64,000 nucleotides of DNA from the NCBI GenBank assembly GCA_965263355.1, contig CBDHHL010000056.1, positions 992,001 through 1,056,000 of the forward strand, given 5' to 3'. The notes under the pieces are model-generated. The model made no database searches. It worked only from the letters and a program-made list of their open reading frames with translations, and was not told the DNA's origin. The DNA is from Leptolyngbyaceae cyanobacterium. GTDB taxonomy: Bacteria > Cyanobacteriota > Cyanobacteriia > Phormidesmidales > Phormidesmidaceae. This document shows, piece after piece, positions 37,744-48,142 of the stretch (its first letter is position 1; each line of letters opens with the position of its first letter). Both the position numbers and the translations under genes were made by a program.

Positions 37744-38913
37744 TTGGGCATTAATAACGACAGGAATACTGATTTATTTATTATGGATATGTATAGTTGG
37801 TACGCACGACAACGAGCACGTTTGGCCTACCGGCGTGGTTGCACATTGGCAAGACAGGGAAATCATCAGAGTGCGATCGCAATTCTATCCAAAGCATTAG
37901 CCTATTCTTCTGATCCGGCATCCGTATATGTGACCCGTGGCTTAAGCTATCGTGCTTTGGGCCAACTAGACAGCGCCCGTCAAGATTTTATAGCGGCCAT
38001 TAACAGTGCAGAAAATCCAGCAGTTGCCTACTTTCAGCGTGGTCGCCTGGCCTGTGAACAAGGAGATATAGCTGCCGCCCTAAGTGACTGGCAACAGGCA
38101 ATTCATGTGAGTCCTAACTATGCAGAGGCTCACTACCAGCTTGGTGTGGTTCAAAGTCAACACCATGACTGGACAGCGGCACTAGCCAGTTTTGACTGCG
38201 TCCTAACGATCAATCCCAACTGGGCTGAGGCCTATTTAAAGCGTGGTAATGTCCGTCATCAGCTAGAAGATTTAGACGGGGCCAGAGCCGATTGGCAACT
38301 GGCGGTGCTCAATGATGCATCATTAGCGCAGTTGGTACCCCCTGTTGCCCAACCAGATGGGTTAACCCCGATTAGAGAGCTACTGCAAGCAGCACTTCAG
38401 CCCATTAAGGTAGATGTTAAACAACGGGGCAAACACCTGGAAATTTCGCTTAAGCGTCAAGTGGGTGAAGGGGTAAGTTATTTCACGCTGCCCAATCAAA
38501 TCCGTGATTTGCTATTGCCCCTAGAATTGTCAGAAATCACTAAGTTTACGCTGATTGGCTATGTGGGGAATGTACGTGGCTCCGAATGGGACAAAAGCTA
38601 TGACCTATATAAAGATCAACCCTGTCCACCTAGCCATTGGTCAACCGCACTTGCCGCACTAGTCACGTTTCCACCCTTAGGAGTAACTGCCTTACTCTAT
38701 GCCAGTCAGGTACAACGATTTTATCGTCGTGGTCAGTACCCTGATGCTCGTCGGGCGTCCAAAGCGGTTAGACATTTATCATTGGTTGGCACTGGTGCAA
38801 TGTGCCTACTGGCATCCTTACCCCTAGCTTACACAGCAGTCAAATCAATTCAAAATGAGCCTGCCCCCCCCGTTAGAACAGCACGGGCGATTGATTATGA
38901 CTTTATTCAATAG
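37744..38913 (+). CDS. TPR-repeat protein with a C-terminal CD225/dispanin-like domain
   Basis: Several TPRs (AYFQRG, AEAHYQLG, AEAYLKRG); PPSHW...FPPLGVTALLYASQV...GQY..ARRASK; true start probably the ATG near 37783. Confidence 0.8.
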   Translation: MGINNDRNTDLFIMDMYSWYARQRARLAYRRGCTLARQGNHQSAIAILSKALAYSSDPASVYVTRGLSYRALGQLDSARQDFIAAINSAENPAVAYFQRGRLACEQGDIAAALSDWQQAIHVSPNYAEAHYQLGVVQSQHHDWTAALASFDCVLTINPNWAEAYLKRGNVRHQLEDLDGARADWQLAVLNDASLAQLVPPVAQPDGLTPIRELLQAALQPIKVDVKQRGKHLEISLKRQVGEGVSYFTLPNQIRDLLLPLELSEITKFTLIGYVGNVRGSEWDKSYDLYKDQPCPPSHWSTALAALVTFPPLGVTALLYASQVQRFYRRGQYPDARRASKAVRHLSLVGTGAMCLLASLPLAYTAVKSIQNEPAPPVRTARAIDYDFIQ

Positions 38914-38964
38914 GTGTCGTATTGCTTTACTAGACAACGTTCGCCCTCGGGTACTGCTGTCATA

Positions 38965-39057
38965 GAGGAATGGCGGCCCTGGCGATCAGTCGCGGCCAGG
39001 CTACTGTGGCATTTTTATCTGAGTGAACGGCGACAGGTTTATCCCACTCTAAATTAG
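38965..39057 (+). pseudogene. C-terminal remnant of a DNA-3-methyladenine glycosylase (AlkA-like)
   Basis: EEWRPWRSVAARLLWHFYLSERR with no matching upstream coding sequence. Confidence 0.65.
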
Positions 39058-39142
39058 GATTTTTTTAGCTACATCCGGAATCATCAATTCTCAACGTGTT
39101 ACTGACTATAGCTCTCTAAGAGAATGTAGCTCTAACAGCGAA

Positions 39143-39180
39143 TTTATGGTTTTAATGCTATCCAGCATTAAAACCATAAA
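39143..39180. repeat. perfect 17-bp inverted repeat
   Basis: TTTATGGTTTTAATGCT-ATCC-AGCATTAAAACCATAAA. Confidence 0.9.
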
Positions 39181-39195
39181 GTTCTTCAAAATGGG

Positions 39196-39224
39196 TGGAC
39201 ATTATCATGCTACACGTGTAGCAT
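39196..39224 (+). promoter_or_regulatory. putative sigma70 promoter overlapped by an 18-bp palindromic operator
   Basis: TGGACA-17 nt-TAGCAT; perfect palindrome ATGCTACACGTGTAGCAT at 39207-39224. Confidence 0.6.
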
Positions 39225-39616
39225 AGTGAGTGACATAGAAAAAGCGACCCGGTCGAGTTGCTTTGGTTTGGCGTAATCTGCGTCCTTATTTATCAATTAT
39301 TCTGACACCAAAGGTATAGGTCCCATGAAGTTCTCTATAGAATTCAGCGTCATGCATAGATATTTAAATCTGTTTGGCCGTTTGACACGGGTGGTGCGGT
39401 GTCTAGGGATGGGATTTAGTTATCCGACCATTGGTGACCTTTGGACCAACGTAATTGATCACGCTGAATCAGAGCGTTGTGACGCGAGTAAATTATTCCA
39501 TGGCTCGATTATAGGTTATCTCAACCAACCAAAACTCAACCGACATAAACGAAGCGGGGAACCCAGGCGCTTAGCCACGTTACCCATCTAACCCCAAGAC
39601 CAACGCAGGTTTTTGG

Positions 39617-39657
39617 CCCCCGCTTCCCGGACCCGGAAGCGGGGGTTGATTATTTTT
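39617..39657 (+). terminator. terminator/attenuator hairpin upstream of the HNH gene
   Basis: CCCCCGCTTCC-CGGACCC-GGAAGCGGGGG followed by TTGATTATTTTT. Confidence 0.75.
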
Positions 39658-39688
39658 AGACATTTTTTTGGACTCCGAGGGCTTAGCC

Positions 39689-40207
39689 ATGACATTACAA
39701 CCGTATAAGCACGTATTGCCCAAACATCGACCCATCGTCCTCTTTTCCAAAAATTACCTTCCCATGGCGCGAATTAATTTGAAGCGAGCAACGGTTCTTT
39801 TAGTAACAGGTCGGGCAGAACCTGTAGATCTAATCGGGAAAACCTGGCAGATGCGATCGCCCAGCCTAACCCTTGAGATTCCTGAGCATATTCGTCTGCG
39901 GGCTGGGGATAGCGATCGCATCTGGAAGACGCCACCGGTTAATCGTCGCGAAGTCCTGCGGCGCGATGGCCATACTTGTCAATATTGCGGTAGCAAGCGG
40001 CAGCTCACGCTGGATCATGTGGTGCCGCGATCGCAAAGTGGCTCTCACACGTGGGATAACGTGGTTACCGCGTGCGCCCCCTGCAATGCCCGCAAAGGGG
40101 CCTTTACCCCTGAGGTTGCCAATATGCAGCTCAGGCGACGCCCCAAAGCGCCTATGCATCCAGTTGTCGCTTTTGCAAAAAATTTCTGGAAAGAGCAGAA
40201 GATTTAA
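39689..40207 (+). CDS. HNH endonuclease (McrA-like)
   Basis: RRDGHTCQYCG, LTLDHVVPRS and WDNVVTACAPCNARKG; ATG 39689 after GAGG. Confidence 0.93.
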   Translation: MTLQPYKHVLPKHRPIVLFSKNYLPMARINLKRATVLLVTGRAEPVDLIGKTWQMRSPSLTLEIPEHIRLRAGDSDRIWKTPPVNRREVLRRDGHTCQYCGSKRQLTLDHVVPRSQSGSHTWDNVVTACAPCNARKGAFTPEVANMQLRRRPKAPMHPVVAFAKNFWKEQKI

Positions 40208-40263
40208 TAGTTTGTGCCGCCGTCGGCATGTGATTGCCCTACTATCCATGGAGATTGTCAGCC

Positions 40264-40650
40264 GTGTTAAAGCTGAACTATAACGATTTCGGCTTATTCC
40301 TTGAACGGGTACCTATATCGTGGGAAACAGTTGCTAATCAGCGAGTCATATTAGCGATGCGCTCTGGTGAGCCCTTGCATCTAGACCCTAGCTGGGCTTC
40401 CTTTTTGTTACCTGTTGAATTATCTGGTGTTACTCGGCTTAAGTGCTTGCTACGGAAATATTCAGCAGATGCGATCGCACTAACCAAAGTTGACGATGAA
40501 TTTGTTGAAGTCAGCCTGAAAGGGATTTGGATGGCGAGTAGCGTTAACGCTGAATCTGGCACCTTTATTACTGCCCTTGCCTCTGAAAGCGAAATGTTAA
40601 TCTATGAACTGTGGCAAGCGACCCAACGACAGAATGCATATTTTGTATAA
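40264..40650 (+). CDS. Alr0857-family-like protein
   Basis: (M)LKLNYNDFGLFLERV...RVILAMRSG...PSWASFLLP...VEVSLKGIW; GTG start after GGAG. Confidence 0.7.
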   Translation: MLKLNYNDFGLFLERVPISWETVANQRVILAMRSGEPLHLDPSWASFLLPVELSGVTRLKCLLRKYSADAIALTKVDDEFVEVSLKGIWMASSVNAESGTFITALASESEMLIYELWQATQRQNAYFV

Positions 40651-41524: not shown

Positions 41525-41553
41525 TTGACACCTTGTAGCGCATTTTGTATTAT
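41525..41553 (+). promoter_or_regulatory. near-consensus sigma70 promoter of the tRNA array
   Basis: TTGACA-17 nt-TATTAT about 100 nt upstream of the first tRNA. Confidence 0.8.
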
Positions 41554-41656: not shown

Positions 41657-41730
41657 GGGGGTGTAACTCAGTGGTCTAGAGTGCCTGTCTGTCGAACAGG
41701 AAGTCGCGAGTTCAAATCTCGTCACCCCCG
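41657..41730 (+). tRNA. trnD: tRNA-Asp(GTC)
   Basis: Cloverleaf; anticodon arm CCTGT-CTGTCGA-ACAGG; TTCAAAT T-loop. Confidence 0.92.
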
Positions 41731-41736
41731 CCTTAT

Positions 41737-41813
41737 AGCCTTGTGGGCGATTAGATAAGCCGCTATGGTTCTCAGCCATAGAGAAGCGGGTGCAACTCCC
41801 GTCAGGGCTCCCA
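41737..41813 (+). tRNA. trnE: tRNA-Glu(CTC), atypical
   Basis: TATGG-TTCTCAG-CCATA; TGCAACT T-loop; encoded CCA. Confidence 0.72.
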
Positions 41814-41885
41814 AAGTTAACTCATGTCGAAGCTGTAGACGCTCTGGAGAAGAAACTTCAGGTTTGTAGCTTGGACATGGTTTAA

Positions 41886-41963
41886 GTCCAGGTAGCCAAG
41901 TTGGTTTAAGGCGTCGGTCTGCAAAACCGAAAATCGTGGGTTCAACTCCCACCCTGGATTCCA
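41886..41963 (+). tRNA. trnC: tRNA-Cys(GCA)
   Basis: TCGGT-CTGCAAA-ACCGA; U discriminator plus CCA. Confidence 0.9.
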
Positions 41964-41965
41964 TT

Positions 41966-42037
41966 GCAGAGATGGTGTAACGGTTAGCACCTCGGTCTCC
42001 AAAACCGATGATCTGGGTTCGAATCCTAGTCTCTGTG
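41966..42037 (+). tRNA. trnW: tRNA-Trp(CCA)
   Basis: TCGGT-CTCCAAA-ACCGA; GGTTCGAATCC. Confidence 0.9.
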
Positions 42038-42068
42038 TTCTGTTGTAGGTCTTCTGCAACAGAAACTT

Positions 42069-42270
42069 GTCTGTACCGTATCCCCATAGAAAAAGCTTAC
42101 ATACTAGCTCAGTTGGTAGAGCATCTGTTTGCAGAACAGACTGTCGCAGGTTCAATTCCTGTCGTATCACGCTTATCCACATCCAGAACTGATGTGTTTT
42201 CCAAAGAAAGCGCTAGGTTTTAACTTGGATGTGGTTGGCACAACGCTTTTTCAACTTATACGGCACAGGC
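42069..42270 (+). ncRNA. structured RNA, scaffold copy A, enclosing a tRNA-like cloverleaf (42098-42170) with a defective acceptor stem
   Basis: Outer stem GTCTGTACCGTAT/ATACGGCACAGGC; inner stem GAAAAAGC/GCTTTTTC; TTACAT and AACTT linkers. Confidence 0.55.
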
Positions 42271-42274
42271 TTTT

Positions 42275-42315
42275 GGTGGCGTAGGCAAATTGGTAAAGCC
42301 ACACGGCTTTCAATT
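42275..42315 (+). pseudogene. 5' half of tRNA-Glu(TTC)
   Basis: GGTGGCGTAGGCAAATTGGTAAAGCCACACGGCTTTCAA, then no 3' half. Confidence 0.6.
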
Positions 42316-42332
42316 CTCACCCGACCCTCCTT

Positions 42333-42423
42333 GGAGAGATCGCCATTGGTAAAGCAAACTGCCTGCTAAGCAGTCGTGAGATAGCAAATCTCACTATGGG
42401 TTCGACTCCCATTCTCTCCTCCA
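42333..42423 (+). tRNA. trnS: tRNA-Ser(GCT)
   Basis: ACTGC-CTGCTAA-GCAGT; long variable arm GTGAGAT/ATCTCAC; CCA. Confidence 0.85.
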
Positions 42424-42518
42424 GAGAACATGGTATAACCGAATAACACAGTTGAAACCTGTAGTTTTCTCGACGGTCAAAAATAGTTCTAGACGTGGAA
42501 ATGGTTTACACAGAAAAT

Positions 42519-42593
42519 CCCCTGGTAGCTCAGTCAGGTAAGAGCGCTTGTCTGAAAAACAAGAGGTCATCCGTTCAAATCGGATCTGGGGGA
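42519..42593 (+). tRNA. trnF: tRNA-Phe(GAA)
   Basis: CTTGT-CTGAAAA-ACAAG; ATCCG-TTCAAAT-CGGAT. Confidence 0.88.
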
Positions 42594-42618
42594 CTTGCAC
42601 TCACTGATGAGTGCTCAA

Positions 42619-42694
42619 TGGGGTGTAGTTCAATTGGCAGAGCGCCTGGTTGTTACCCAGGAAGTTAGAGGTTCGACTCCTCTCGCCCCAGCCA
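42619..42694 (+). tRNA. trnN: tRNA-Asn(GTT)
   Basis: CCTGG-TTGTTAC-CCAGG; GCCA end. Confidence 0.88.
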
Positions 42695-42699
42695 TTTAT

Positions 42700-42775
42700 T
42701 GCCGAGTGGACGAATTAGCAAGTCGCCTGACTCTGAATCAGGAGATTGTAGGTGCAAATCCTACCTCGGCATCCA
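42700..42775 (+). tRNA. trnQ: tRNA-Gln(CTG)
   Basis: CCTGA-CTCTGAA-TCAGG; TGCAAAT T-loop; CCA. Confidence 0.82.
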
Positions 42776-42776
42776 A

Positions 42777-42850
42777 TCCCCTGTGGTGCAATTGGCAGTT
42801 CACGTCCGATTTTGGATCGGAAAATCTAGGTTCAAATCCTAGCGGGGGAG
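42777..42850 (+). tRNA. trnQ: tRNA-Gln(TTG)
   Basis: TCCGA-TTTTGGA-TCGGA; GGTTCAAATCC. Confidence 0.85.
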
Positions 42851-42864
42851 TTGGAGTACCAAAT

Positions 42865-42941
<77 letters not shown>

Positions 42942-42944
42942 AAT

Positions 42945-43068
42945 CGGGATGTAATTCAGTGGTCAGAGGCCTTGTTTGCAATTGGTAGACATGCCGTGCT
43001 CAGAACGCGGTTGCTGTGGGTAACTCCTAGCGGAGACGCTTCGCGAACGAATCTCTGGCGACCCACCA
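42945..43068 (+). pseudogene. chimeric tRNA remnant: Pro-like 5' end fused to a Leu(CAG) body with a T-loop insertion
   Basis: CGGGATGTAATTCAGTGGTCAGAG, then D arm TGCAATTGGTAGACATG, CCGTG-CTCAGAA-CGCGG, and GTGGGT[26-nt insert]CGAAT. Confidence 0.6.
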
Positions 43069-43108
43069 AATACCTCACCTATACAACCCATGGACTTTTA
43101 AGTCCCTT

Positions 43109-43182
43109 GCCCCTGTGATGCAATTGGTAGACATGATCCGCTTAAAACGGATTTGTTGCAGGTTCGACTCCTGTCAGGGGTA
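43109..43182 (+). tRNA. trnL: tRNA-Leu(TAA), short variable loop, no intron
   Basis: ATCCG-CTTAAAA-CGGAT; GCAGG-TTCGACT-CCTGT. Confidence 0.85.
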
Positions 43183-43229
43183 TGGCAGTAATGCCAATAA
43201 AAACAAATTTGCAAAAGGAGGTGAATCCG

Positions 43230-43688
43230 ATGAAACTTGCAGAGGCCCTAATGCAACGGGCAGATTGTCAGAAGAGAATCGCTCAGTTGCGTCAGCGATT
43301 GACGCGCAGCGCCAAGGTCCAGGAGGGCGAACAGCCTCCCGAGAATCCTCAAGAGCTGTTGTCAGAGGTGGATACTGCAGTTGCTGAACTTACGCATTTG
43401 GTGCAGCGGATTAATCAGACTAATGCTAGTACAGCATTGGCTGATGGTTCTTTATCAGATGCCCTGGCTCAGCGGGATACTCTATTCACTAAGCGAAGTG
43501 TTTTGGAAAACTTAATCCAAGCTGCATCCATTACCCATGATCGGTACAGCCGTTCGGAGGTAAGATTTGTAAGTACGGTGGATATTGGCAGTCTACAGCG
43601 TCAGTTAGACGATATCTCACGAGACTATCGTTTGCTAGATGCACAGATTCAATCGCTAAACTGGCAGATTGACCTAATAGGTAGTTAA
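43230..43688 (+). CDS. DIP1984 family protein
   Basis: MKLAEALMQRAD...AKVQEGEQPPENP...RYSRSEVRFVST...IQSLNW; RBS AAGGAGGTG. Confidence 0.85.
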   Translation: MKLAEALMQRADCQKRIAQLRQRLTRSAKVQEGEQPPENPQELLSEVDTAVAELTHLVQRINQTNASTALADGSLSDALAQRDTLFTKRSVLENLIQAASITHDRYSRSEVRFVSTVDIGSLQRQLDDISRDYRLLDAQIQSLNWQIDLIGS

Positions 43689-43690
43689 AA

Positions 43691-43919
43691 CAAATAGTCG
43701 GTAGCTAAATTCAACAGAAGCGAACACAACCCGCCAACTGGGCAAGTTGGGAAATGTCGTATACTAAACGACCCTTGGATGCGCTGGGGCAGGGCAAATG
43801 GGTTCGACTCCCGTTTATAAATTACGCCCAGCATTGTGACAGGTGCACATCATACTGTGATTGCTTACTACCCTGTGTTGATCGGTTGAATTTAGTGAGG
43901 GTGGGTTCGGGGACTATTG
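43691..43919 (+). ncRNA. putative structured RNA downstream of the DIP1984 gene
   Basis: Long-range stems ATAGTC/GACTAT, GCTAAATTCAAC/GTTGAATTTAGT and AACACA/TGTGTT; internal T-arm-like ATGGG-TTCGACT-CCCGT. Confidence 0.5.
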
Positions 43920-43965
43920 CTGGTGTAGCTCAATTGGCAGAACAACTGTCTTGTTAGGACTACCA
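43919..43965 (+). pseudogene. 5' half of tRNA-Thr(TGT)
   Basis: GCTGGTGTAGCTCAATTGGCAGAACAACTGTCTTGT, then truncated. Confidence 0.6.
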
Positions 43966-43968
43966 CTT

Positions 43969-44043
43969 GCCTCTATAGCTCAACGGACTCAGAGCAGCGC
44001 CCTTCGAAGGCGACGGTTCCAGGTTCGAATCCTGGTAGAGGTG
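43969..44043 (+). tRNA. trnR: tRNA-Arg(TCG)
   Basis: GCGCC-CTTCGAA-GGCGA; CCAGG-TTCGAAT-CCTGG. Confidence 0.88.
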
Positions 44044-44101
44044 CTTGTTATTAATCAGTAAGGAGGTTGTTTTCATTGAAGCTTATGTTATTTAGTTTTA
44101 A

Positions 44102-44332
44102 GCCAGGATCGTAATGCGTGCCCTCACGGTTAGAGCCTACATACTTTAAGTACGAGAGGAACAGTAACACCAAAACGGTGTGCGTTTGCAAACAGGGATC
44201 GCGAAGAATCTGAAAGGTTGGCTTTAAAGTAGCCATCCTCTAAGGAGTGTGTTAAAACTCATCATTGGAGCCCCCTTAGTAGCTGAGAAAACGCTATGCT
44301 CTAAATACTTGCACGACATTGGGAATCCTGGT
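44102..44332 (+). ncRNA. putative 23S rRNA-mimic RNA (sarcin-ricin loop plus L11-binding GTPase-associated centre)
   Basis: AGTACGAGAGGA at 44149-44160; 54-nt gap-free match to 23S 1053-1106 at 44211-44264 with compensatory changes; three nested enclosing helices. Confidence 0.7.
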
Positions 44333-44455
44333 CATTGGCCTTGATGTATACAGAGAGAACAACATCGGGGAGCCTAGGCAGGACTTCGGCGTAAGCTCAG
44401 TCGAACGCACGAGGCGATTACCCTACAAGAATTGTCCAGATAAAATGGAGGTTTT

Positions 44456-44905
44456 ATGACGATTTATTTTTATAGCGATCGCAAAAAACCTTATGGGTGT
44501 TTCTCCAATTTTTCGAAGCATGGGGTATTGTTGAATGGTCGATGGTGGCCGACAACAGAACATTATTTCCAGGCTCAGAAATTTATAGACACCGATCCTG
44601 ATTGGGCTGACAAAATTGGTAATGCGAAAGCACCCAAGACTGCTGCAGTAATGGGTAGAGACCGAAGCCACCCTCTCCGTTCTGATTGGGAACAAGTCAA
44701 AGACGACATCATGCATCGAGCCGTGCTCACTAAGTTCCAAACCCATGCAGATATCCAAGCTATTTTGCTAGGGACTGGTGCCGAGCCAATCGTTGAAAAT
44801 GCCCCTGGAGATTACTATTGGGGCTGTGGTAAAGACGGTAGTGGTCTAAATAAATTAGGCCGAATTCTAGAAGCTGTGAGGGCAACAATTCGCGAAACAA
44901 TTTAA
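44456..44905 (+). CDS. NADAR (YbiA-like) family protein
   Basis: YGCFSNFS, WPTTEHYFQAQKF, RSDWEQVK and DYYWGCGKDGSGLNKLG motifs. Confidence 0.93.
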   Translation: MTIYFYSDRKKPYGCFSNFSKHGVLLNGRWWPTTEHYFQAQKFIDTDPDWADKIGNAKAPKTAAVMGRDRSHPLRSDWEQVKDDIMHRAVLTKFQTHADIQAILLGTGAEPIVENAPGDYYWGCGKDGSGLNKLGRILEAVRATIRETI

Positions 44906-44908
44906 CAA

Positions 44909-44983
44909 GGGAGTGTCGCCTAAAGGATGGGCATCGATCTTCTAAATCGATCTGTGTAGGTTCAAATCCTACCACTCCTGCCA
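44909..44983 (+). tRNA. trnR: tRNA-Arg(TCT)
   Basis: TCGAT-CTTCTAA-ATCGA; GCCA end. Confidence 0.88.
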
Positions 44984-44993
44984 ATCAAAAAAT

Positions 44994-45094
44994 GGGCCTG
45001 TAGCTTAACTGCGAAAGCATCTGCCTTGCAAGCAGAAAGATGTCGGTACTCTAGCGAGAAGGCTAACGCCTACGAAGCCGACCAGTGGCCACCA
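44994..45094 (+). pseudogene. tRNA-Ala(TGC) with a 25-nt T-loop insertion
   Basis: TCTGC-CTTGCAA-GCAGA; GTCGGT[ACTCTAGCGAGAAGGCTAACGCCTA]CGAAGCCGAC; imperfect acceptor stem, ACCA end. Confidence 0.7.
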
Positions 45095-45113
45095 AATAAT
45101 TTCTTTAACGCAT

Positions 45114-45191
45114 GTTGGCCGAATCCGAAGTGGACGAGGAGCTGGTCTGTGAAACCAGTGTTAGCGGGTTCAAGCCCCGTCGGTCAACCCA
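45114..45191 (+). tRNA. trnH: tRNA-His(GTG)
   Basis: CTGGT-CTGTGAA-ACCAG; G-1 pairing with C73; CCA. Confidence 0.85.
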
Positions 45192-45194
45192 ATT

Positions 45195-45581
<387 letters not shown>

Positions 45582-45606
45582 AGATTGCTAGATTTTTTCT
45601 CTTTTT

Positions 45607-45750
45607 TCCTGCGCCCTAACCTGTAAAGCATACACACTTTCGGCTTAAAAACCGGGAAAGTGCAAGTTCGAATCTCGCGAGACCGCCATCGGTCTGTAGC
45701 CCAATTGGTAGAGGCACCATGTAACTAAGGCTTTTCAAACTTGCGTGGGA
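45607..45750 (+). ncRNA. structured RNA, scaffold copy B, with a circularly permuted tRNA-like module (YrlA-type topology)
   Basis: T arm GCAAG-TTCGAAT-CTCGC, then AGACCG-CCAT-CGGTCT, then D arm TAGCCCAATTGGTAGAGGC, enclosed by TGTAAAGC/GCTTTTCA and TCCTGCGC/GCGTGGGA. Confidence 0.65.
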
Positions 45751-45768
45751 TTTTTATTAAGTTTGTAT

Positions 45769-46494
45769 ATGAGCGAACATCGACTGAGTGAAATTGTGAT
45801 TGAACGTCCCCGTGGTGGGATGCGTGTGAGTTCTAGAAAGCTGAAGGGACATCGAAAAGAACTGGAGCAGATTACGCGGGTAGCAACCGAAGATGGGTTG
45901 CTGAGTCCCTATTTGATTAAGCCCAGACGGAAGTCAAAGTGGTTATCAGATCATCTAGGGCCATTGCGTAAGTTGTTGCAGTCTCAAGTGGGTCAGCCCT
46001 GGGATCAGGTCTATAGTCGCCTGTGTCGCGATCTAAATCCTCGTACCATGGCTGGCCAGCATGTGATCGATCATCTCTGGGGTTATGTAGAACAGCATGT
46101 GGAGATCATTGATGGTTTACCCTATACCAAACAGAATCACTGGTATTGGCAAGGTGAACGACGTTCTTTATCGGACTACTATGGAACAAAGTTCTATGTG
46201 AATCCTGAGACAGGTTTACTGTGTGTGGCTCCTAACGTGTGTCGCAGACGAGAACCTGCCCCTCCTGAAGAGGTGATTCAGGTGAACACCTATGAACAGT
46301 ATCGTTGCATAGATCAGATTTGGTATTGCATCACTTTTGAGATATTACATTCACCATTTGCATGGGATGTGCTGTTCAAAGACACTCTTGATGCTAAAAA
46401 GGCTTTACAGTCCTATCGCCGTAAGATCTATGCTGCGAAGAAGCGTCAATGTGGAAAGCGAGACCTTAAAAAGATTCGTAGAATGTTGAAGTAA
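45769..46494 (+). CDS. basic hypothetical protein
   Basis: MSEHRLSEIVIERPRGG...LSDHLGPLRKLLQSQVGQPWDQVYS...FYVNPETGLL. Confidence 0.8.
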   Translation: MSEHRLSEIVIERPRGGMRVSSRKLKGHRKELEQITRVATEDGLLSPYLIKPRRKSKWLSDHLGPLRKLLQSQVGQPWDQVYSRLCRDLNPRTMAGQHVIDHLWGYVEQHVEIIDGLPYTKQNHWYWQGERRSLSDYYGTKFYVNPETGLLCVAPNVCRRREPAPPEEVIQVNTYEQYRCIDQIWYCITFEILHSPFAWDVLFKDTLDAKKALQSYRRKIYAAKKRQCGKRDLKKIRRMLK

Positions 46495-46496
46495 TT

Positions 46497-46674
46497 GGCA
46501 GTTGTTGCTGTGACCTAACTTAAAGAGCTTACATTCTCTACCAACCAAACAGGTGGTGTGCTGATTGGAGAGTCAGCACTGCAAACCCGGACCTTAGCGG
46601 GCGAAGTTATCTTATTGTCTTTTAGCAAACGATGACTTCATGCTCTTTTAACTCATGCAGCGGCAACATCTGCC
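46497..46674 (+). ncRNA. structured RNA, scaffold copy C, immediately upstream of the TROVE-like/vWA gene
   Basis: GTTGTTGCTGTGA/TCATGCAGCGGCAAC outer stem; CCTAACT; AAAGAGC/GCTCTTT; TTACAT; AACT. Confidence 0.55.
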
Positions 46675-46684
46675 TCCTGATTAA

Positions 46685-48142
<1,458 letters not shown>

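Follow-up and report, generated by a model that had tools for sequence, protein, structure and literature searches.

A family of cyanobacterial scaffold RNAs with a putative mimic of the ribosomal factor-binding site and a candidate Ro60-like partner

The Y RNAs of bacteria are described as molecules of two parts, in which a stem binds the Ro60/Rsr protein and a second module tethers another protein or gates the ring (PMC4201824; 10.1101/312249). Their genes are described in repair operons that also contain rsr and rtcB (PMC4201824; 10.1101/312249), and few of the YrlA type, which is defined by the order T arm, closed acceptor stem, D arm, have been reported from cyanobacteria (PMC4201824). 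In the operon leaders of ribosomal proteins such as L10 and L20, a short RNA is described to copy the binding site of a protein on rRNA (PMC7247131). Here we analyze a stretch of 64,000 nt from a Leptolyngbyaceae cyanobacterium (contig CBDHHL010000056.1), referred to below as the window, in which positions 44111-44319 of the plus strand hold one copy of a structured RNA of approximately 210 nt. The inner part of this RNA resembles two distant sites of 23S rRNA, the sarcin-ricin loop and the GTPase-associated centre, whereas its outer part is a scaffold shared with other RNAs of the same locus. The explanation that we consider best, with a probability of roughly 55%, is a Y-like RNA whose effector domain mimics the factor-binding site of the ribosome, which has a Ro-like protein as its partner and which belongs to a stress regulon.

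An original prediction, made before any database search, had placed in this region a small RNA that joins the two rRNA elements, and direct reading of the window bore out its description of the parts. AGTACGAGAGGAAC lies at 44149-44162 between TACT (44142-44145) and AGTA (44163-44166), the GTPase-centre-like stretch of 54 nt occupies 44211-44264, and the modules are enclosed by three nested pairs of complementary segments, GCCAGGAT/ATCCTGGT (44102-44109 and 44325-44332), AATGCGTGC/GCACGACATT, and TTAGAGC/GCTCTAA. Positions 44149-44160 carry the sequence of the sarcin-ricin motif AGUACGAGAGGA, a predicted bulged-G motif with a GAGA tetraloop closed by Watson-Crick pairs. The 12-mer core of this motif occurs once in the window, with 0.12 occurrences expected at up to one mismatch. 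The 246-nt region around the element folds at -76.9 kcal/mol compared with -62.4 ± 4.7 kcal/mol for shuffled sequences (z = -3.1), and none of 200 shuffles was as stable. At gathering thresholds, Rfam gave 14 matches in the whole window, all of them tRNA and none on the element, and at E up to 10 no family was found on the element within 43100-45400, in agreement with the claim that the RNA belongs to no described family. The features of the element and of its surroundings are collected in Table 1. The outermost helix is particular to this copy, as other copies in tRNA arrays carry different flanking palindromes and the flanks are not conserved in the alignment described below.

Table 1. Features of the window around the structured RNA
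Feature	Positions	Strand	Description
Likely array promoter	41525..41553	+	TTGACA 41525-41530, 17 nt, TATTAT 41548-41553; boxes TGTAGCGC, TGTATTAT
Sister RNA, tRNA-like cargo and long extra hairpin	42071..42265	+	R1 match of 30.5 bits, scaffold only
Outer helix, 5′ strand GCCAGGAU	44102..44109	+	Pairs with 44325-44332; particular to the window copy; in the minimum-energy fold
Scaffold helix P1, 5′ strand	44114..44121	+	Pairs with 44311-44319, one bulged A; 8 pairs, 5 changed on both sides
Scaffold internal loop, 5′ side, CCUCACGG	44122..44129	+	Conserved; family consensus CCCUAAC..; candidate protein-binding motif
Scaffold helix P2, 5′ strand	44130..44136	+	Pairs with 44298-44304; 7 pairs, 4 changed on both sides
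Scaffold junction CUACAUAC	44137..44144	+	3′ part is the 5′ strand of the first cargo stem; motif in every cargo class
Sarcin-ricin-loop hairpin	44142..44166	+	Stem UACU/AGUA; core AGUACGAGAGGAA at 44149-44161
Hairpin P4	44168..44180	+	Between the two putative mimic modules; 6 pairs, 6/6 changed on both sides
Helix P3, 5′ strand	44182..44187	+	Pairs with 44289-44294; encloses the GTPase-centre arm; 3/6 pairs changed on both sides
Helix P5, 5′ strand	44194..44197	+	Base of the H42-like arm; pairs with 44273-44276
K-turn-like bulged strand GCGAAGAA	44201..44208	+	Faces GGAGC 44267-44271; place of Kt-42
Putative GTPase-associated-centre mimic	44209..44266	+	Top of H42, H43, H44; aligned to what we take to be 23S positions 1051-1108
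Single-stranded joiner UAGUAGCUGAGA	44277..44288	+	Conserved; family consensus UAGUAACUGAGA
Scaffold 3′ half	44298..44319	+	P2 3′ strand, loop ..ACUU, P1 3′ strand
Outer helix, 3′ strand AUCCUGGU	44325..44332	+	Direct read; minimum-energy fold
NADAR-domain gene	44456..44905	+	E 8.9e-39; directly downstream of the RNA; arrangement repeated in 7 other loci
Sister RNA, YrlA-like circularly permuted tRNA cargo	45604..45750	+	R1 scaffold match, fold
Sister RNA, 106-nt cargo	46503..46662	+	Directly upstream of the Ro60-like gene
Ro60/Rsr-like gene, 478 aa	46706..48142	+	Helical repeats and vWA domain; proposed scaffold partner

Relatives of the RNA are widespread. In a collection with one genome per species, at least 115 loci matched a pattern built on the best-conserved part of the element. 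The copies extracted number 120, of which 118 are distinct. Among 80 loci with titles, three are named "uncultured bacterium" and the remainder carry cyanobacterial names, including Nostoc, Microcoleus, Calothrix, Tolypothrix, Coleofasciculus, and Chroococcidiopsis. Two copies lie on plasmids, pA of Kovacikia minuta and pAfl69 of Dolichospermum flos-aquae, with blastn identity of about 75% over 76% of the query. The homologues in phages that had been anticipated did not appear, as there was no match in phage records by blastn or in viral contigs by the exact-letter pattern, which diverged copies could escape.

For structural analysis, we aligned 69 copies with mutual identity below 94%, from which three disrupted copies were excluded (L066, the second copy of L060, and L108). 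RNAalifold supported five helices with compensatory changes in 20 of 43 pairs. Its pairing of the rRNA-like parts, which joined UAC with GUA inside the sarcin-ricin motif and lacked the rRNA pairing of H43 and H44, was set aside, and the final structure was set by hand from the helices supported by RNAalifold and rRNA-type pairing for both modules. In this structure, 96.5% of 3580 cells pair, compared with 34-53% when the partners are slid by 1-3 columns, changes on both sides occur in 25 of 52 pairs, and none of 500 shuffles reaches any of five measures; the structure was partly drawn from the same related sequences, so that these controls somewhat overstate the support, while the double changes are still many. 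The four helices of the GTPase-centre domain are 97.8-100% paired, with double changes at alignment columns 113-166, 115-164, 118-140, 122-136, 142-146, and 152-159.

The sarcin-ricin core was fixed by the search pattern, and its invariance in the set found with that pattern says little. We thus turned to a covariance model of the family, R1, which was searched over 151 sampled Cyanobacteriota genomes. The 12-mer core is intact in all 11 full-length matches, 3 of which lack the search pattern, and it is substituted in all four 3′-truncated second copies found in Nostoc loci. These truncated copies (L060:4566-4767(-), L014:4513-4722(-), L039:1263-1469(+), and L008:1258-1468(+)) lie about 1.5 kb upstream of an intact copy and, having lost the 3′ scaffold, look like decaying duplicates. 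A different kind of disruption is seen in L066:2776-3048(-), which keeps a score of 166 bits despite 67 nt inserted within the K-turn region. The sampled genomes contain a match of 273 nt with an identical score (G082:C23:732163-732435, 166.4 bits).

The likeness to rRNA was examined with the 23S rRNA of two genomes bearing relatives as the host reference. When the bacterial large-subunit (LSU) rRNA model RF02541 was run on these whole genomes, it found the 23S genes and the element itself, the latter with 56.1 bits (E 2e-15, over the cut-off) and 46.6 bits (under the cut-off) and at model positions 1091-1152 only. blastn of the relatives against the 23S of the same genomes gave alignments that begin in the 5′ strand of H42 and extend over 59-69 nt, with identities of 74-79% and E values between 1e-8 and 4e-10. 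The reverse search gave the same picture, with R1 matching real 23S genes in many of the sampled genomes at 45-67 bits and approximately model positions 86-169; in genome G001, the coordinates of the R1 matches fall within the 23S genes found by the LSU model. For the family, the likeness to rRNA that had been predicted from 44211-44264 is backed by these matches of the relatives. The window copy alone, which is more diverged than its relatives, gave no significant GTPase-centre match by BLAST or the LSU model at E up to 10, and its blastn comparison with 23S returned the 12-nt sarcin-ricin match only.

The similarity to 23S is not collinear. Two separate patches of 59-69 nt and 12-14 nt were found, and not the continuous similarity that a simple pseudogene would show. 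In 23S rRNA the corresponding modules lie approximately 1500-1590 nt apart and in the opposite order; the opposite order and a separation of about 1600 nt had been given in the original prediction. Approximately 80 nt of the 210-nt RNA are rRNA-like, including a 12-nt sarcin-ricin core identical to that of H95 and a domain corresponding to H42 (5′ strand and K-turn), H43, and H44, in which pairs and tertiary positions are kept or covary, whereas the joining helices have no counterpart in rRNA. The base that follows GGA in the sarcin-ricin sequence is A in all copies and C in host 23S.

The positions of the tertiary core were assigned by gapless alignment to fetched cyanobacterial 23S sequences, in what we take to be the E. 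coli 23S numbering. The pair changes proposed at 1053-1106, 1054-1105, 1055-1104, 1058-1080, and 1082-1086 hold against cyanobacterial 23S. U1060.A1088, A1077-U1078, and the triple G1071.(G1091-C1100) are invariant in 69 of 69 sequences. The 1072.(1092-1099) triple is U.(U-A) in 66 sequences, as had been read from the window copy, U.(U.G) in two, and C.(C-G), the cyanobacterial 23S state, in one. This triple switches as a unit, and the tertiary-contact positions behave as would be expected under selection. At the place of Kt-42, a K-turn signature is conserved at the sequence level (G.A 64/69, A.G 67/69, A.G 65/69), with the closing C-G pair in 69/69 and a variable 3-nt loop. Given the number of loci, the strong covariation, the reversed order of the modules, the A in place of C after GGA, and the lack of an Rfam family, the element is best read, as originally proposed, as a selected structural mimic rather than a fragment of rRNA. 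A decayed 23S fragment, a chimeric pseudogene, or a chance resemblance, for which one could cite the lack of a significant GTPase-centre match for the window copy alone and the decaying copies beside intact ones in four Nostoc loci, is refuted by the at least 115 loci over many cyanobacterial genera, the non-collinear and reversed modules, the compensatory pairs, and the retention of the sarcin-ricin core in intact copies but not in truncated ones, and retains next to no probability.

The original prediction missed that the RNA represents only one class of cargo in a modular family, whose members share a scaffold and are linked to a Ro60-like protein. The outer part of R1 alone matches three more sites in the window at 25.7-30.5 bits, and 26 scaffold-only elements were found by R1 in 91 other loci. 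The folds of 25 of these sister elements share one arrangement, P1, a 5′ loop CCCUAAC.., P2, UACAUA, the cargo, P2′, a loop ..ACUU, and P1′, in which the sequences of P1 and P2 differ between elements while complementarity is kept. One type of cargo is a single hairpin with an anticodon-like loop of 7 nt (forms of 75-83 nt), and another consists of a D arm, an anticodon arm, and a T arm without a normal acceptor stem (approximately 125 nt). The three sisters in the window carry different cargoes. The cargo of the first has a D arm, an anticodon-like arm, and a T arm, with an Rfam tRNA match at 42105-42162 (model positions 8-63) and no ARAGORN call. The cargo of the second starts with a T arm that contains GUUCGAAUC, continues with an acceptor-like hairpin, in which CCAU closes the loop end, and finishes with a D arm, the order that is found in YrlA; the Rfam YrlA model gave 16.5 bits (E 3.5) here, compared with a gathering score of 69. 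The cargo of the third matched no Rfam family at E up to 10. The second sister lies directly upstream of a 249-aa open reading frame (ORF) at 45745-46494 without a family match, and every protein gene in the array of the window is preceded by a scaffold RNA.

The candidate partner of the scaffold is encoded by the 478-aa gene at 46706-48142, which starts 2.4 kb downstream of the RNA on the same strand. Its family of 477-478 aa has 2465 relatives at E up to 1e-5, which the sources name "hypothetical" or "vWA domain-containing". A profile comparison by hhalign with 11 canonical cyanobacterial TROVE-vWA proteins gave a probability of 95.3% (E 2.3e-8, 269 columns) over part of the helical region and the vWA domain. 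Among the Foldseek matches listed against the PDB, the top 11 are all Ro60, Rsr, or TROVE proteins (E 4e-7 to 1e-4, TM about 0.25) and the next one listed has an E of 6e-3, a ranking that was used only jointly with the hhalign result. The neighbours in the ESM Atlas include TROVE clusters at 0.94-0.95. On the strength of these three results, the 478-aa protein is called a divergent Ro60/Rsr homologue.

The RNA scaffold and this protein are linked in the genomes. In all 19 loci that could be examined, the 450 nt upstream of the gene contain the 5′ motif of the scaffold, compared with 419 of 3400 random windows from the same loci. Among the sampled genomes, 11 hold the full-length RNA, 11 the protein, and 10 both, so that 10 of the 11 in either set hold the counterpart. 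The gene lies within 3 kb of the RNA in 35 of 80 loci. Of the 151 genomes, 30 have canonical TROVE genes, which are located elsewhere in the genome and likewise beside tRNA genes, and at 12 canonical TROVE loci there was neither an R1 match nor an Rfam YrlA match at the gathering threshold. At four of the canonical loci (L151, L152, L158, and L159), the TROVE genes are flanked by runs of same-strand tRNA genes, where some of the Rfam tRNA matches are oddly long at 98-127 nt and no YrlA match attains the gathering score.

The element of the window sits in an array of 14 tRNA genes called by ARAGORN (41657-45281), between tRNA-Arg(tcg) at 43969-44044 and the NADAR-domain ORF, with tRNA-Arg(tct) next. 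The array setting described in the original prediction is correct for this copy. Across the family, with array copies defined by a tRNA gene within 400 nt and with the strands of the tRNA genes mapped, 46 copies lie in arrays, whereas 72 of 118 (approximately 60%) stand alone. Array copies are on the same strand as the tRNA genes, usually follow a tRNA-Arg gene, and in many cases are followed only by tRNA genes. Stand-alone copies, which are mainly from Nostocales, have TGTAGTAT, 2-3 nt, TGTATTAT, and TAATAT immediately upstream, and TGTANTAY is found in the last 40 nt upstream of 50 of 72 stand-alone and 0 of 46 array copies, compared with 44 of 4250 random 40-nt windows. TGTAGTAT is described as the TrcR site that overlaps the -10 element of the trn operon of Anabaena sp. 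PCC 7120 (PMC10272220), and the regulatory element is described as two tandem repeats with a spacing of 2-3 nt over the -10 element and the start site (PMC8421152). In the likely promoter of the window's array, the boxes at 41535-41553 were identified by eye and the second overlaps the -10 element; a strict tandem-box pattern had no match in the window.

The gene content of the locus also resembles the Anabaena trn operon and TrcR regulon, where an array of the same type follows HNH and alr0857-family genes, the regulon includes RtcB and genes of the TIGR02452 type, and tandem operator boxes cover the -10 element (PMC8421152; PMC10272220). Genes that are de-repressed in the trcR mutant include those for HNH, alr0857, RtcB, and a TIGR02452 protein (PMC10272220 Table 1). 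The families found around the RNA comprise HNH, alr0857-family, TIGR02452 PARG-like, RNA ligase, NADAR, Macro, and RNase T proteins, and the TIGR02452 PARG-like gene adjoins the RNA in 13 loci. Based on the operator boxes of the stand-alone copies, the TrcR-type context of the array, and these TrcR-regulated neighbour families, the RNA probably belongs to a TrcR-type translational-stress regulon; the link to translational stress that had been suggested is thus upheld as far as sequence signals can carry it.

Several other observations were made at these loci. The stretch at 39668-40650 (+), upstream of the window's array, encodes an HNH endonuclease and a protein of the alr0857 family, which belong to the same families as the TrcR-regulated all8564/alr0856 and alr0857 of Anabaena; no trcR-like gene was found among the ORFs of 37800-39700. 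A gene of the DUF6847 / DIP1984 family (43182-43688, +) lies inside the tRNA array just upstream of the element. Rfam gave a weak tRNA-like match at 44994-45051 (+, 25.1 bits) and a tRNA match at 45115-45188 (+, 41.9 bits), both without an ARAGORN call, which may be degenerate or unusual members of the array. The commonest same-strand neighbours in the 80 loci with at least 3 kb are a 277-aa protein (38), the 477-aa protein (35), and a ThiF-like protein (34). The 277-aa protein (L008:4266-5099(+) and 37 other loci) follows stand-alone copies, usually with a gene for a ThiF-family adenylyltransferase-like protein next, and the two may be an unrecognised functional pair. It had no Pfam or NCBIfam family and no match in the Atlas, and comparison showed that it is unrelated to the 249-aa ORF of the window.

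Taken as a whole, the arrangement fits the published scheme of Y RNAs with a new effector module, and on this ground we propose a Y-like RNA. As in YrlA and Yrn1, the two ends of the molecule pair into a long stem that contains a large conserved internal loop, a separate module resembles an RNA of translation, and several RNAs are encoded in one locus together with RNA-repair genes. Y RNAs are encoded within about 4 kb of a Ro60 orthologue and on the same strand, and a Ro60-like gene lies at such a distance on the same strand in the window and in a part of the other loci; the sister at 45604-45750 even shares the order of arms with YrlA. The differences are that the effector considered here would mimic rRNA, whereas those of the Y RNAs mimic tRNA, and that the partner is a distant relative of Ro60 that is missed by the TROVE model of Pfam, with canonical TROVE genes elsewhere in the same genomes.

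In the mechanism that we propose, the outer scaffold (P1, the conserved internal loop, P2, and the UACAUAC junction) would play the role of the Ro-binding stem of Y RNAs, as suggested by its position and context, and would bind the divergent Ro60/Rsr-like protein. The inner cargo would be a mimic of two modules, the sarcin-ricin-loop hairpin and the GTPase-associated centre with its K-turn, H43, and H44. The RNA would be made within a TrcR-controlled regulon of translational stress and RNA repair, with array copies such as that of the window cut out of the long tRNA-array transcript and the others produced from their own TrcR-type promoter. By analogy with other Y RNAs, it may tether or gate the ring of the Ro-like protein, and the cargo may capture a protein that normally recognises this site of rRNA. 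As ligands we consider uL11 and the uL10 stalk base, translational GTPases, and enzymes or toxins directed against the site as candidates. The retained K-turn, H43 stem, and tertiary core would favour the stalk-base proteins uL11 and uL10, and the presence of the sarcin-ricin loop in the same molecule would favour a translational GTPase or a loop-directed enzyme.

Several results weigh against this explanation. On the side of the protein, the AlphaFold model is poor (pLDDT 55, TM about 0.25 to Ro60), with an alpha/beta domain that comes after approximately 18 helices. Searched at E up to 10, Pfam gave weak vWA families only and did not reach TROVE, vWA_Ro60 was matched at E 0.043 in only one of 26 members, and a PDB sequence search with the Ro-like profile returned 0 matches at E up to 10. 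The co-occurrence of RNA and protein (Fisher p about 1e-13) is measured by a statistic that is not corrected for common descent among the genomes. In one genome the RNA occurs without the protein and in another the protein without the RNA, and the distance between them ranges from 1.8 kb to separate contigs, with several genomes at 31-57 kb or on different contigs. On the side of the RNA, the 5′ strand of the sarcin-ricin stem belongs to the invariant scaffold, and for this reason no covariation is seen in the stem. The Rfam Y RNA models RF00019 and RF02553 did not match the element. The scaffold sequence G-Y-N-C-C-Y-N-A-A-Y, located where the 5′ stem strand passes into the internal loop, is similar to but not the same as the Ro motif GNCGAAN0-1G (vertebrate GGUCCGA); the latter is described near the 5′ end of Y RNAs, the same place as the scaffold loop (PMC4201824).

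The fidelity of the factor-binding site is a further point on the same side. A1067 is a key contact for factors in real ribosomes. In the family the aligned position is A in 54 sequences, G in 12, C in two, and U in one, in contrast to the rRNA. The window copy has U at both the A1067- and the A1095-aligned positions, a feature not noted in the original prediction, and it is the only one of the 69 with U at either. The variable A1067 position and the two U of the window copy argue against a faithful site for EF-G or for thiopeptides.

In the first alternative, the RNA would be a free-standing decoy, sponge, or bait that needs no Ro-like protein. It would soak up or report on whatever binds or attacks the sarcin-ricin loop and GTPase centre, be it a ribotoxic nuclease or glycosidase, a toxin induced by stress, or translation factors present in surplus. 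This is the idea of the original prediction, which had suggested a decoy for ribotoxins that cleave the sarcin-ricin loop, or binding of L11/L10, EF-G/EF-Tu, or RelA. It draws strength from the sister RNAs, whose anticodon-like 7-nt loops and tRNA bodies are further minimal targets of RNA-damaging toxins, from the RNA-repair and ADP-ribose-removing enzymes encoded nearby, from the strong purifying selection on the sarcin-ricin core, and from a report that isolated sarcin-ricin RNA binds IF2 and EF-G (PMC3496166). Because of the anticodon-loop sisters and the RNA ligase, NADAR, Macro, PARG-like, and RNase T neighbours, a bait or decoy in the surveillance of RNA damage is a serious alternative. 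A decoy of this kind nevertheless leaves unexplained why all cargo classes share one scaffold and why that scaffold precedes the Ro-like gene in 19 of 19 loci, and no ribotoxin gene recurs in the neighbourhood clusters. We know of no nuclease aimed at the GTPase centre, which also counts against it, and on balance we consider the free-standing decoy unlikely.

Bait and Ro-like protein could also be combined in a modular system, in which one Ro60-like ring serves a set of scaffold RNAs, each displaying a minimal target of a toxin or antibiotic and acting as both canary and decoy for attacks directed at the ribosome. The displayed parts would be the anticodon loop, the tRNA body, and the sarcin-ricin loop with the GTPase centre, and damage to or occupation of a bait would be captured by the ring and passed to the co-encoded RNA ligases, ADP-ribose removers, and exonuclease. 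We hold this extended scheme to be unlikely; if it were true, 44111-44319 would provide the first example of a cell that makes use of a natural "ribosome in pieces".

A cis-acting 5′ leader, in which a protein that binds the rRNA fold controls the translation or stability of the downstream message as in ribosomal-protein leaders, has to be considered as well. Stand-alone copies always lie upstream of a same-strand ORF, which among the 80 loci that span 3 kb or more is that of the 277-aa protein in 38 cases, and within the window's array each protein gene follows a scaffold RNA. In loci of the Kovacikia type, moreover, an extended P1 pairs AGGAG 6 nt before the start codon. The downstream partner varies, however, and may be the 277-aa protein, NADAR, an RNA ligase, or the next tRNA, and the pairing of AGGAG is restricted to a few lineages. 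Compared with the leaders of L10 or L20, the element has no adjacent ribosomal-protein gene, and none was found among the neighbour clusters, it copies two distant sites of rRNA, and many copies are followed by tRNA genes only. Y RNAs are described to be processed from the 5′ part of rsr transcripts as well (PMC4201824), and the upstream position therefore cannot separate a leader from a Y-like RNA. On balance, we regard a leader as decidedly doubtful for the family. As an observation on its own, P1 is extended to CUCCUGCGUGC/GCACGCAGGAG in the Kovacikia/Leptolyngbya-type loci L001:2997-3220(+), L093, L096, and L099, and in L001 the scaffold pairing takes in the AGGAG located 6 nt ahead of the start codon of the next gene, a hint that translation may be controlled in cis in this lineage.

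Another possible role would be that of an antibiotic sponge, in which the RNA is induced by inhibitors of translation and takes up thiopeptides, the antibiotics with a binding site in the GTPase centre. The conserved GTPase-centre fold would suit this role, as would membership, by sequence signals, in a regulon described to be induced by antibiotics (PMC8421152). It is contradicted by the position aligned to A1067, which varies in 15 of 69 sequences, and by the U of the window copy at both adenines; it also leaves the sarcin-ricin module and the tRNA-like sisters unexplained. In ribosomes, A1067 and A1095 are the two adenines that form the thiopeptide pocket. With these adenines not both kept and the other modules unexplained, we rejected the sponge as very improbable.

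6S RNA, a stable RNA that copies the docking site of a large machine, and other non-coding RNAs that capture a protein by mimicking its nucleic-acid ligand offer a parallel in logic to the Y-like RNA proposed here, from which they differ in target and fold and to which they are unrelated in sequence; sequestration by the present RNA is only a candidate function. Full-text literature searches returned no description of this RNA. In the passages covered, two papers on the Anabaena array and regulon (PMC8421152; PMC10272220) mention no structured RNA other than tRNA, no 23S-like sequence, no Ro60, and no vWA protein, and their supplements may list unannotated transcripts. In the literature searched, a mimic of the factor site of rRNA is without precedent.

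If the Y-like explanation is correct, this would be, as far as the searches made can tell, the first small RNA from nature in which copies of both elements of the ribosomal factor-binding site, the sarcin-ricin loop and the GTPase-associated centre, are united, and it would offer a ready-made minimal system for studying how proteins read the factor-binding site. It would widen the idea of Y RNAs from the mimicry of tRNA to that of rRNA, and it would bring to light a group of Ro60 relatives, 2465 proteins at the threshold used here, that the TROVE model of Pfam has missed. For cyanobacteria, it would add a new component to the long tRNA arrays and would join these arrays, RtcB-type repair, and ADP-ribose-removing enzymes in one stress module.

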